Positions 20,142 to 37,794 of a stretch of DNA of 64,000 bases are shown piece by piece; positions within the stretch are counted from its first letter, which is position 1, and the number at the start of each line of letters is the position of its first letter. A model generated the notes under the pieces. The model searched no databases. It saw nothing but the letters and a program-made list of their open reading frames with translations, and had not been told where the DNA came from. Source of the DNA: Escherichia virus TH38; sequence record MT446410.1. One strand, given 5' to 3'. Made by a program: the position numbers and the translations under genes.

Positions 20142-20150
20142 TAATGTATA
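20142..20150 (+). promoter_or_regulatory. TAATGTATA promoter motif
   Basis: Exact 9-mer 38 nt upstream of ATG 20189. Confidence 0.4.
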
Positions 20151-30038: not shown

Positions 30039-30047
30039 TATACATTA
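30039..30047 (-). promoter_or_regulatory. TAATGTATA promoter motif (- strand)
   Basis: Exact motif on - strand upstream of SSB operon. Confidence 0.35.
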
Positions 30048-30110: not shown

Positions 30111-30119
30111 TAATGTATA
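30111..30119 (+). promoter_or_regulatory. TAATGTATA promoter motif (+ strand, divergent)
   Basis: Exact motif on + strand in same intergenic region, pointing away from SSB gene. Confidence 0.35.
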
Positions 30120-35575: not shown

Positions 35576-35860
35576 TCAACCTCTTGGGAATGGCATCAAA
35601 AATTCCACAGCAGATTTAATTTCATTATTGATTCTTGAATCACGATAAGAGATAAACTTACCTTTGCTATCACGTAACATCACATTAGTTCTGGCTGTTT
35701 TGTGAGGGAGTAATGTGACACTAGTTGGAATAGTATCAATCCCTACAGCGTATTTGTCAATAGTCTTACTTTCAGCCAACAGATAAGACCAAGTACGCGG
35801 TTTCTGCTCCGGGCGGTTAGGGTATGTGTCCCGAATTTGAACCATAGCTAACTTATTCAT
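35576..35860 (-). CDS. hypothetical protein, tandem paralog A
   Basis: Shares ARTNV.LR...GKFISY...A.E.L.PFP.G with next gene. Confidence 0.45.
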   Translation of the reverse strand: MNKLAMVQIRDTYPNRPEQKPRTWSYLLAESKTIDKYAVGIDTIPTSVTLLPHKTARTNVMLRDSKGKFISYRDSRINNEIKSAVEFLMPFPRG

Positions 35861-35861
35861 A

Positions 35862-36116
35862 TTAAACTCCTTTAGGGAATGGGATGAGATTTTCTACTGC
35901 AACACGGAAAGATTTTTCTACGTTCTTATTCTTATAAGAGATAAATTTTCCATCAGCTCCGCGAAGGAGTACGTTAGTGCGAGCTGTATTTGGGTTTTGT
36001 TGAATCATAGAACGAATGATGTTCTCTGAACCTCTATGCTTATTGGTGAATTTCCAACTGATAGTTTTACCGGTACGAGTTACATCAATAATATTTACAA
36101 TTTTTACAATAGACAT
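35862..36116 (-). CDS. hypothetical protein, tandem paralog B
   Basis: Paralog of 35576-35860. Confidence 0.45.
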   Translation of the reverse strand: MSIVKIVNIIDVTRTGKTISWKFTNKHRGSENIIRSMIQQNPNTARTNVLLRGADGKFISYKNKNVEKSFRVAVENLIPFPKGV

Positions 36117-36150
36117 ATTTATTACCTAAGAAATTTAATTTGGTTTATAT

Positions 36151-36180
36151 AAAAGAAAAGGCCACCCATTTGGGTAGCCT
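36151..36180 (-). terminator. rho-independent terminator (- strand)
   Basis: 9-bp stem (1 mismatch) then TTTTCTTTT on - strand. Confidence 0.6.
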
Positions 36181-36184
36181 CATA

Positions 36185-36502
36185 TTACGATGAGCTTAAA
36201 GCTCCTTTGCGTGCTCCAGCTGCTTTTCCAGCTCGATCACCACTTTTGCCGCCGTTTGAACGGTTTGAGCTGACTGATTCAACACGTAAGTTGCTTGACG
36301 CATTAGAACCTCCAGACTTGACAGCTCGTTTGTGTCCAACGTCTTTACCTCTGACAGCAGCTTTTCCATCGCGCTTTTCAACGATGCGACGTGCACGGTG
36401 GCGCTGAGCATCTCCGCTCTTGCTCCCAACGCCTGTCTCACCACGGGCAATTGCGGTACGTCTTTCTTGTGCATAATCTCTCTTTCCTACATGATCTGCC
36501 AT
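36185..36502 (-). CDS. small basic Gly/Ser/Lys/Arg-rich protein (stress-protein/KGG-like)
   Basis: Strong RBS aaggag 6 nt before ATG; TAATGTATA motif 37 nt upstream; low-complexity basic composition. Confidence 0.45.
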   Translation of the reverse strand: MADHVGKRDYAQERRTAIARGETGVGSKSGDAQRHRARRIVEKRDGKAAVRGKDVGHKRAVKSGGSNASSNLRVESVSSNRSNGGKSGDRAGKAAGARKGALSSS

Positions 36503-36538
36503 TTAAAACTCCTTAATATATCAGTGTACACTAAGGAG

Positions 36539-36547
36539 TATACATTA
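36539..36547 (-). promoter_or_regulatory. TAATGTATA promoter motif (- strand)
   Basis: Exact motif 37 nt upstream of ATG 36502. Confidence 0.4.
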
Positions 36548-36558
36548 TAAGTTACTGT

Positions 36559-37296: not shown

Positions 37297-37478
37297 TTAC
37301 GCTCTCCAATTTCTTCGTAATGACACTCAGTAGTTAAACAGTCTTTACAGATTGCTGTATAAACCCTGACGTTAGTAAATCGTTTGTTCTTCCCTTTGGT
37401 TGGAGAGCCTTTGGCAAGCTCTCTGATAATCTTGTTACTTAAATGAAGGTTTGTTCCTTCACATTTAGAGCACTTCAT
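37293..37478 (-). CDS. small zinc-ribbon protein
   Basis: CSKCEG ... CKDC cysteine pairs. Confidence 0.4.
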   Translation of the reverse strand: MKCSKCEGTNLHLSNKIIRELAKGSPTKGKNKRFTNVRVYTAICKDCLTTECHYEEIGERK

Positions 37479-37794
37479 GGTTCATATCTTTATGAATCCT
37501 GTAAACAGCTGTCGCCATACAAGCAACAGCCTCATTGTGTGGGAGATGCATTCCTGTAGAACCATCCCAATCTTTGAACTCATTGTCAAAGACTCCGGTA
37601 GGCTCTGGATACAGAGCTTGCAGCTCCACTAGATCATTAGCAACTTGTTGCCATTTATCATCAGACCAGATAGGGTCATCCAACCAGTAATACAAATAGG
37701 AATGGATGATCAATTGCCTTCTATGCCGATTGATTACTTCAGCGGGACTTATTTCACTTCCATTTGAAGTCCTAAATGTATTACTGTCAATCAT
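37465..37794 (-). CDS. standalone protein resembling NAD-dependent DNA ligase domain Ia
   Basis: RQLIIHSYLYYWLDDPIWSDDKWQQVANDLVELQALYPE matches LigA N-terminal helix pattern (L..H...YY..D.P.ISD..YD.L..EL..LE..YPE). Confidence 0.4.
   Translation of the reverse strand: MIDSNTFRTSNGSEISPAEVINRHRRQLIIHSYLYYWLDDPIWSDDKWQQVANDLVELQALYPEPTGVFDNEFKDWDGSTGMHLPHNEAVACMATAVYRIHKDMNHEVL

Follow-up and report, generated by a model that had tools for sequence, protein, structure and literature searches.

On the minus strand of the Kuravirus DNA examined here, a 105-residue reading frame, ORF A, is very probably a real, conserved gene standing in a single-gene transcription unit, and the 92-residue frame nested inside it, ORF B, a non-gene shadow in the +1 frame that arises from the composition of ORF A. 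The window, meaning the whole 64,000-nt stretch of Escherichia virus TH38 that was analyzed, comes from a Kuravirus (the phiEco32/SU10-like E. coli podophages), and the region in question shares 93-98% identity with Kuravirus genomes. ORF A (36185-36502, minus strand; 105 aa, net charge +15) and ORF B (36196-36474, minus strand; 92 aa) both start with ATG and both were found open over the same DNA, as the original prediction had said; the ORF B start lies 28 nt inside ORF A, in frame +1 relative to it. That prediction had offered two explanations for the pair, a frame artifact of the locally high GC or genuine overprinting. Stop counts, dN/dS, third-position GC, and homolog searches all point to the first.

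ORF A is the ortholog of phiEco32 gene 58 (phi32_58, YP_001671803) and of SU10 CDS56. Its product is 100% identical to the phiEco32 protein and matches phrog_4590 with an E value of 7.7e-41, residues 4-101 aligning to positions 2-99 of the 100 in the profile. Homologs fall into at least 200 clusters in a search among 5.8 billion proteins, are described by 322 representatives at 50% identity, and are present in 253 phage records. All 16 of the annotated GenBank records that we examined have the 105-aa frame as the sole one annotated. Gene 58 is a middle-class gene of the replication module, and SU10 CDS56 is among the few middle genes common to all five sequenced C3-morphotype phages (PMC4281155). 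The phiEco32 locus has the same position between PhoH and DNA polymerase and the same TAATGTATA promoter as that of ORF A; it differs in that one or two additional small ORFs separate PhoH from gene 58 in phiEco32 and some relatives, whereas in the window PhoH directly precedes ORF A. Both the annotation of ORF A, a conserved phage gene, and the mapping of its promoter predate this analysis.

Some of the labels carried by its orthologs are wrong, namely “Cas8 protein” in Ptacy1532 and Ptacy1479 (PQ863255/PQ863256) and “PhoH-like protein” in VTCCBPA_211 (PP989838). Similarity to the HNH domain of Cas8-HNH fusion proteins is the probable source of the Cas8 label; these fusion proteins are the best PDB sequence matches of the ORF A family profile.

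The expression signals attributed to ORF A in the original prediction are all present. A strong ribosome binding site, AAGGAG (36509-36514, minus strand), was read from the sequence 6 nt upstream of the ATG, and an RBS is annotated at the equivalent site in phages Paul and SU7. The promoter motif, TAATGTATA (36539-36547, minus strand), lies 37 nt from the ATG; it is a single-element promoter of the gp36 phage sigma factor and the counterpart of the phiEco32 gene 58 promoter. Gene 58 is one of six phiEco32 genes that stand behind experimentally identified gp36 promoters, and the consensus for the gp36 holoenzyme is the single element tAATGTAtA, with transcription starting 6-8 bp downstream (PMC8948821). 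Transcription of ORF A is expected to start at ~36531-36533. The window holds five exact copies of TAATGTATA, compared to 0.65 expected, at 2598-2606 and 20142-20150 on the plus strand, 30039-30047 on the minus strand, 30111-30119 on the plus strand, and at ORF A itself, where 20 relatives share, without a single change, the 22-nt run (36527-36548) that contains the promoter. Two of these copies, at 30039 and 30111, are separated by 72 nt and face different strands, an arrangement suggestive of a divergent promoter region that separates the late from the middle gene cluster.

On the other side of the gene, the terminator scan found an intrinsic terminator (36149-36181, minus strand) with a 10-bp stem that includes six G-C pairs, a 4-nt loop, and a T-run. 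The stem begins 4 nt past the ORF A stop codon (36181 to 36158), its 3' arm and T-tract (36149-36166, 18 nt) are invariant in 20 relatives, and a terminator is annotated at the equivalent site in phages 4E8 and SU7. The proposed unit would run from the gp36-sigma promoter TAATGTATA through the AAGGAG site and ORF A to the terminator, and ORF A is a compact, monocistronic middle-gene unit that is probably well expressed.

The two frames lie in a stretch that is richer in GC than its surroundings, with a GC fraction of 0.51-0.525 over 36200-36499 compared to ~0.31-0.45 in the flanks. The rise is explained by the Gly, Ala, and Arg codons of ORF A at codon positions 1 and 2: GC1/2/3 is 0.62/0.58/0.32 for ORF A, compared to 0.52/0.38/0.37 (standard deviations, 0.06/0.06/0.05) for the 53 long ORFs of the window. 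Horizontal transfer of foreign DNA was rejected as the source, since the excess lies at positions 1 and 2 and the GC3 of ORF A is typical of the phage (z of −1.1 relative to the window ORFs). The codon log-likelihood of ORF A, 0.230 per codon, is likewise in the range of the window genes (0.28 ± 0.15). The earlier description of this frame as basic and rich in Gly, Ser, Lys, and Arg agrees with its composition (G16 A15 R15 S14 K10, with Leu, Ile, Val, and Met totaling just 13), but the product is not low-complexity junk: it has 23 invariant columns among 36 diverse homologs and a predicted HNH-like fold. Three plus-strand ORFs of 41-72 aa (36207-36407, 36332-36550, and 36391-36516) are also open, antisense to ORF A; they fit the same stop-poor effect of composition rather than being genes.

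A stop codon in the +1 frame (TAA, TAG, or TGA) would require a frame A codon of the form NTA or NTG, encoding Leu, Ile, Val, or Met, followed by a codon that starts with a purine. Because Gly, Ala, Arg, Ser, and Lys make up most of protein A and those four residues are so few, its +1 frame is expected to be open. The numbers agree: among 35 unique homologs from widely different phages, 65 stops were observed in the +1 frame, compared to 65.3 expected from within-gene synonymous permutation, whereas resampling from locus-wide codon usage predicts 103. The family uses fewer NTA and NTG codons than its neighbors, without any context-specific avoidance of stops. When the sequence of protein A is held constant, 23% of within-gene synonymous permutations, and 7.8% of resamplings from the codon usage of the window, have a +1 frame that is open for 96 codons or more. 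The +1 frame is often open in relatives, but it is interrupted by three to seven stops in L022, L029, L031, L036, and L037. Selection that keeps frame B open was ruled out by the synonymous permutation.

Synonymous freedom in one frame only, the pattern that the original prediction had set against overprinting, is what the homolog alignments contain. In 20 unique Kuravirus/Suseptimavirus sequences, the variable columns are distributed 29/16/55 over the codon positions of frame A, and dN/dS (Nei-Gojobori, NG86) over the region shared by the two frames is 0.154 in frame A, with a pS of 0.24; frame B has 1.505 and the third (+2) frame has 3.25. The translation of frame B changes radically among close relatives, for example, KKDVPQLPVVRQALG in place of KNEELQSNVGRQVLV. 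Against 27 non-Kuravirus homologs, identity is 57% in frame A and 20% in frame B. Distant homologs draw on every synonymous codon at the family-invariant residues (S29, R34-R39, H35, and others), and their Ser codons switch between AGY and TCN. Programmed frameshifting from A into B was also considered; frame B shows no constraint.

Codon usage and homology lead to the same place. The GC3 of ORF B is 0.645, a z of +5.9 relative to the 53 window ORFs (GC3 standard deviation, 0.047; maximum, 0.486), and its codon log-likelihood is −0.046 per codon compared to the 0.28 ± 0.15 of window genes. No family in Pfam or PHROGs was matched by ORF B, and a search of 5.8 billion proteins returned just two clusters, 86-99% identical to it, and no independent homologs. 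These two clusters, from short metagenome contigs, are alternative-frame gene calls on the same DNA, and membership of ORF B in a protein family was rejected because nothing independent of Kuravirus DNA was found in any of the three collections.

The 92-aa frame had been noted earlier for a normal, helical composition. Its composition is indeed the more ordinary and helix-prone of the two, but the frame is very probably not a gene, and the helical character has a simple origin: the second codon position of ORF B is the AT-rich third position of ORF A, which makes its translation rich in Leu, Val, Glu, Lys, and Gln. This ordinary look is what would recommend the inverse assignment, with ORF B the real gene and the basic ORF A the artifact. 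We hold that assignment to be vanishingly unlikely, as conservation, dN/dS, codon usage, homology, annotation, and expression signals all favor ORF A and the homolog alignments refute it.

Overprinted gene pairs are well known in phages, as in the overlapping genes of phiX174 and the Rz/Rz1 pair of lambda, and these likewise have two long same-strand frames open over one stretch of DNA. Unlike them, ORF B has no purifying selection, no conservation above chance, no typical codon usage, and no independent homologs. In favor of an overprinting that is young and restricted to the clade, with ORF B functional only within Kuravirus, the frame is open with a conserved ATG in all 20 Kuravirus/Suseptimavirus sequences, and a synonymous cold spot falls inside the overlap. 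Even so, we consider it very improbable. Openness is expected by chance; the ATG, kept in only 5 of the 27 other homologs, needs a TAT codon (Tyr10) followed by a codon starting with G and is thus forced in Kuravirus by the conserved Tyr10-Ala/Glu11 of ORF A (TAT-G..). The Shine-Dalgarno sequence of ORF B is weak, as had been predicted, and is not conserved. Within the Kuraviruses themselves, frame B has its dN/dS of 1.5 with many radical replacements, and its GC3 and codon log-likelihood are as atypical as stated above. The cold spot, finally, takes in 27 of the 93 overlap codons, and the 17 N-terminal codons of ORF B are hypervariable (0.28). Genuine overprinting is not supported here, and we return to the reading in which ORF B is a shadow of ORF A.

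The cold spot itself deserves a closer description. A stretch of 47 nt within ORF A (36375-36421, minus strand) has no substitution in 20 Kuravirus/Suseptimavirus relatives and is the longest invariant run in 2.2 kb, followed by the promoter run of 22 nt and the terminator arm and T-tract of 18 nt. It forms the core of a wider zone of low synonymous change at ~36344-36424 (codons 27-53), so that the cold spot measures 47-81 nt, and the core encodes SKSGDAQRHRARRIVEK, the most conserved motif of the family. Along the overlap, third-position divergence starts at 0.28 over the first 17 codons, drops to 0.007 in codons 27-53, and returns to 0.14 in the 3' part, compared to 0.22-0.30 in PhoH and the three downstream genes; 15 consecutive codons have no synonymous change, while variation touches 51% of third positions. 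The effect could be taken for a sign of overprinting, but only this clade shows it, as distant homologs use all synonymous codons there. ORF B was rejected as its cause, as the zone covers only part of the overlap and the ORF B flanks are hypervariable.

The ORF A gene is a mosaic. In sequence L053, divergence is 18% on the 5' side and 0% on the 3' side; in L055, it is 1.3% and 12.9%, respectively; and all four gametes occur in 59% of the site pairs that join the 5' and 3' parts, compared to 23-34% within halves. The cold spot coincides with the recombination junction and is not coextensive with ORF B. Our reading is that crossovers concentrate in, and homogenize, the most protein-constrained stretch, the one that encodes SKSGDAQRHRARRIVEK. 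A functional element at the nucleotide level, such as the target of a homing endonuclease or a gene conversion tract, a protein-binding site, or an RNA element, would also account for an invariant run more than twice as long as the conserved promoter and for 15 codons in a row without a synonymous change, and HNH homing-endonuclease genes do lie directly 5' (Bas86) or 3' (4E8 and others) of the gene. We think such an element rather unlikely, however: alleles that lie beside a homing endonuclease have the same sequence here as the rest, distant lineages have no such constraint, and the independent assortment of the 5' and 3' halves implies that exchange can homogenize the segment without any extra function. 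An RNA element in particular was set aside, because the folding z of the stretch is +0.38, with no signal of structure, and no Rfam family was matched.

We place protein A in the HNH (beta-beta-alpha-Me) nuclease superfamily, on the basis of a structure prediction together with motif conservation and transitive Pfam matches. The predicted core (36245-36346, minus strand; codons 53-86) consists of a first strand at residues 53-57 that ends in H57, a GGSN loop, N71, a second strand at 72-76, and a helix at 77-86 that carries N80. The modeled topology is thus the beta-hairpin plus alpha-helix of the superfamily, with a His in the catalytic position at the end of the first strand, an Asn before the second, and an Asn/His metal-ligand position on the helix. 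These residues are highly conserved in the family (H57 in 137 of 137 members, N71 in 130, and N80 in 136, the remaining one having His), and HMMER aligned the family motif “vdHkkplksGGsnaksNl” with “vhHivplsqGGadsikNm” of Cas8-HNH. In the first model, the basic tail has a pLDDT of <50; in the second, it reaches 70-78. Small HNH nicking endonucleases were the best structural matches.

Other features of HNH domains are less regular in this family. The window protein lacks the acidic or His residue that directly precedes the catalytic His in the family generally: it has Gly56, as do all Kuraviruses, in a family that has D in 105, G in 17, H in 4, and E in 3 members at this position (n = 137). Among the Pfam HNH models (PF01844 and relatives), the window protein has no match above threshold; PF01844 is matched at E ≤ 0.01 by 11 of 46 family members, and the remote profile matches P0224 and P0215 exceed its gathering score, so that the Pfam link of the window protein to HNH is transitive only. 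Zn-binding CxxC pairs, which are found in many HNH domains although not in all, would not be available here, as Cys is absent from 130 of 137 members and no member reaches four. The close-family profile matched no sequence of a solved structure in the PDB, and a broad profile gave seven weak, subthreshold matches there, all of them HNH nucleases.

The most likely role of protein A, judged from the predicted fold, would be nicking or structure-specific cleavage of DNA by a metal-dependent enzyme, or DNA binding by a protein derived from such an enzyme, alongside the replication and recombination machinery of the phage. That it is indeed a metal-dependent enzyme of either kind, with phage DNA in replication or recombination as its substrate, is a tentative proposal, to which we give somewhat less than an even chance. 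A degenerate HNH domain, no longer a nuclease in Kuravirus and kept as an abundant basic protein that binds DNA or shapes its architecture, is a somewhat unlikely alternative. It would make sense of Gly56 in place of the Asp before the catalytic His, of the net charge and basic tail, and of the dedicated strong promoter, strong RBS, and terminator, which suggest high expression. It sits poorly with the intact H57, N71, and N80 under strong purifying selection, and the occurrence of Gly56 in 17 of the 137 members, across several sublineages, implies that the Asp may be dispensable in the family.

Known kinds of HNH protein can be set apart from the candidate nuclease. The small stand-alone nicking endonucleases (Geobacter Gme HNH, 4h9d; phage GVE2 HNH, 5h0o) share only 10-16% sequence identity with it and, unlike them, the ORF A family is almost free of Cys. 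The HNH genes of the GVE2 and HK97 gp74 type adjoin terminase and act in packaging; this terminase-associated role was rejected for ORF A, which lies in a replication and nucleotide metabolism module beside PhoH and DNA polymerase in five lineages. Free-standing HNH homing endonucleases (I-HmuI, 1u3e) are sporadic, whereas ORF A is present in all relatives and keeps one syntenic position, and it is far shorter than the bona fide homing endonucleases inserted beside it in some Kuraviruses. A homing role was rejected given the fixed synteny, strong purifying selection, and universal presence in relatives.

In the window, ORF A lies between PhoH and DNA polymerase, and in Kuravirus, LUZ24, Salmonella phage 7-11, Aeromonas phage LAh_8, and E. 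coli phage PJNS034 the gene is found on the same strand, 0.8-2 kb upstream of a family A DNA polymerase. The LUZ24 homolog, gp26, directly follows the polymerase exonuclease subunit gp25, and every LUZ24-like genome among the matches has the family gene beside this subunit. LUZ24-like and tf-like phages have strand-specific nicks at TACTRTGAC (PMC3517423, PMC11780129). The mini-HNH family (phiEco32 gp58/LUZ24 gp26) might be a nicking enzyme of the replication module, sequence or structure specific, and in LUZ24/tf-like Pseudomonas phages the nickase that makes them, with the Gly56 variant of Kuravirus having an altered or lost specificity, an idea that we mention as improbable. A nickase for these nicks is named in neither PMC3517423 (2012) nor PMC11780129 (2025), and among the papers that our literature search covered, none identified one for LUZ24-like phages. 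In the window, TACTRTGAC has two matches, one per strand, compared to 1.2 expected, with no strand-biased enrichment; a relaxed form of the motif has 4 matches compared to 7.8 expected, and an unbiased scan of the window for strand-asymmetric, overrepresented 8- to 10-mers found no further motif.

Several annotations in and around this neighborhood can be commented on. The family A polymerase of LUZ24 (L062 3492-7526) is annotated as split into the exonuclease subunit gp25 and a “part II” (gp34) ~2.3 kb apart, with eight small genes, another endonuclease included, in between; the note that gp26 “contains transmembrane domain” is unlikely for a very basic protein with an HNH fold. HNH homing-endonuclease genes lie directly 3' of the ORF A ortholog, before the terminator, or 5' of it in different Kuraviruses (3' in 4E8, L050 1355-1849; 5' in Bas86, L059 616-996; also present in EC.W14-3, YW01, TH34, EK010, and TH42), which makes the ORF A gene a place where mobile endonuclease genes insert repeatedly. 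SU10 has an unrelated extra gene, CDS55, at the 3' site (L001 2187-2480). The two genes just downstream of ORF A in the window, at 35862-36116 and 35576-35860 (minus strand; 84 and 94 aa), form a tandem pair of paralogs that both match phrog_6814 and are 55% identical over their C-terminal 40 residues (E value, 1e-15); the first of them is labeled “autotransporter adhesin” in several GenBank records and looks misannotated. An ORF of 109 aa at 37465-37794 (minus strand) matches phrog_6466, “DNA ligase,” and some relatives have it annotated under that name, a doubtful label for a protein far too short to be a complete ligase.

The locus is a worked negative example of overprinting: a long, clean, helix-prone nested ORF can arise simply from a protein that is rich in Gly, Ala, Arg, Ser, and Lys and lacks NTA and NTG codons, and the real gene can be the frame that looks less like a protein. 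What remains of value beyond this is an improved annotation of gene 58 and the Kuravirus-specific invariant core. The “hypothetical” product of phiEco32 gene 58 can be annotated, from its predicted structure, as a putative Cys-free mini-HNH-fold protein of ~100 aa in the replication module. The mini-HNH family is common to Kuravirus, LUZ24-like, 7-11-like, Lahexavirus, and other phages, and it is a reasonable candidate for replication-linked nicking.
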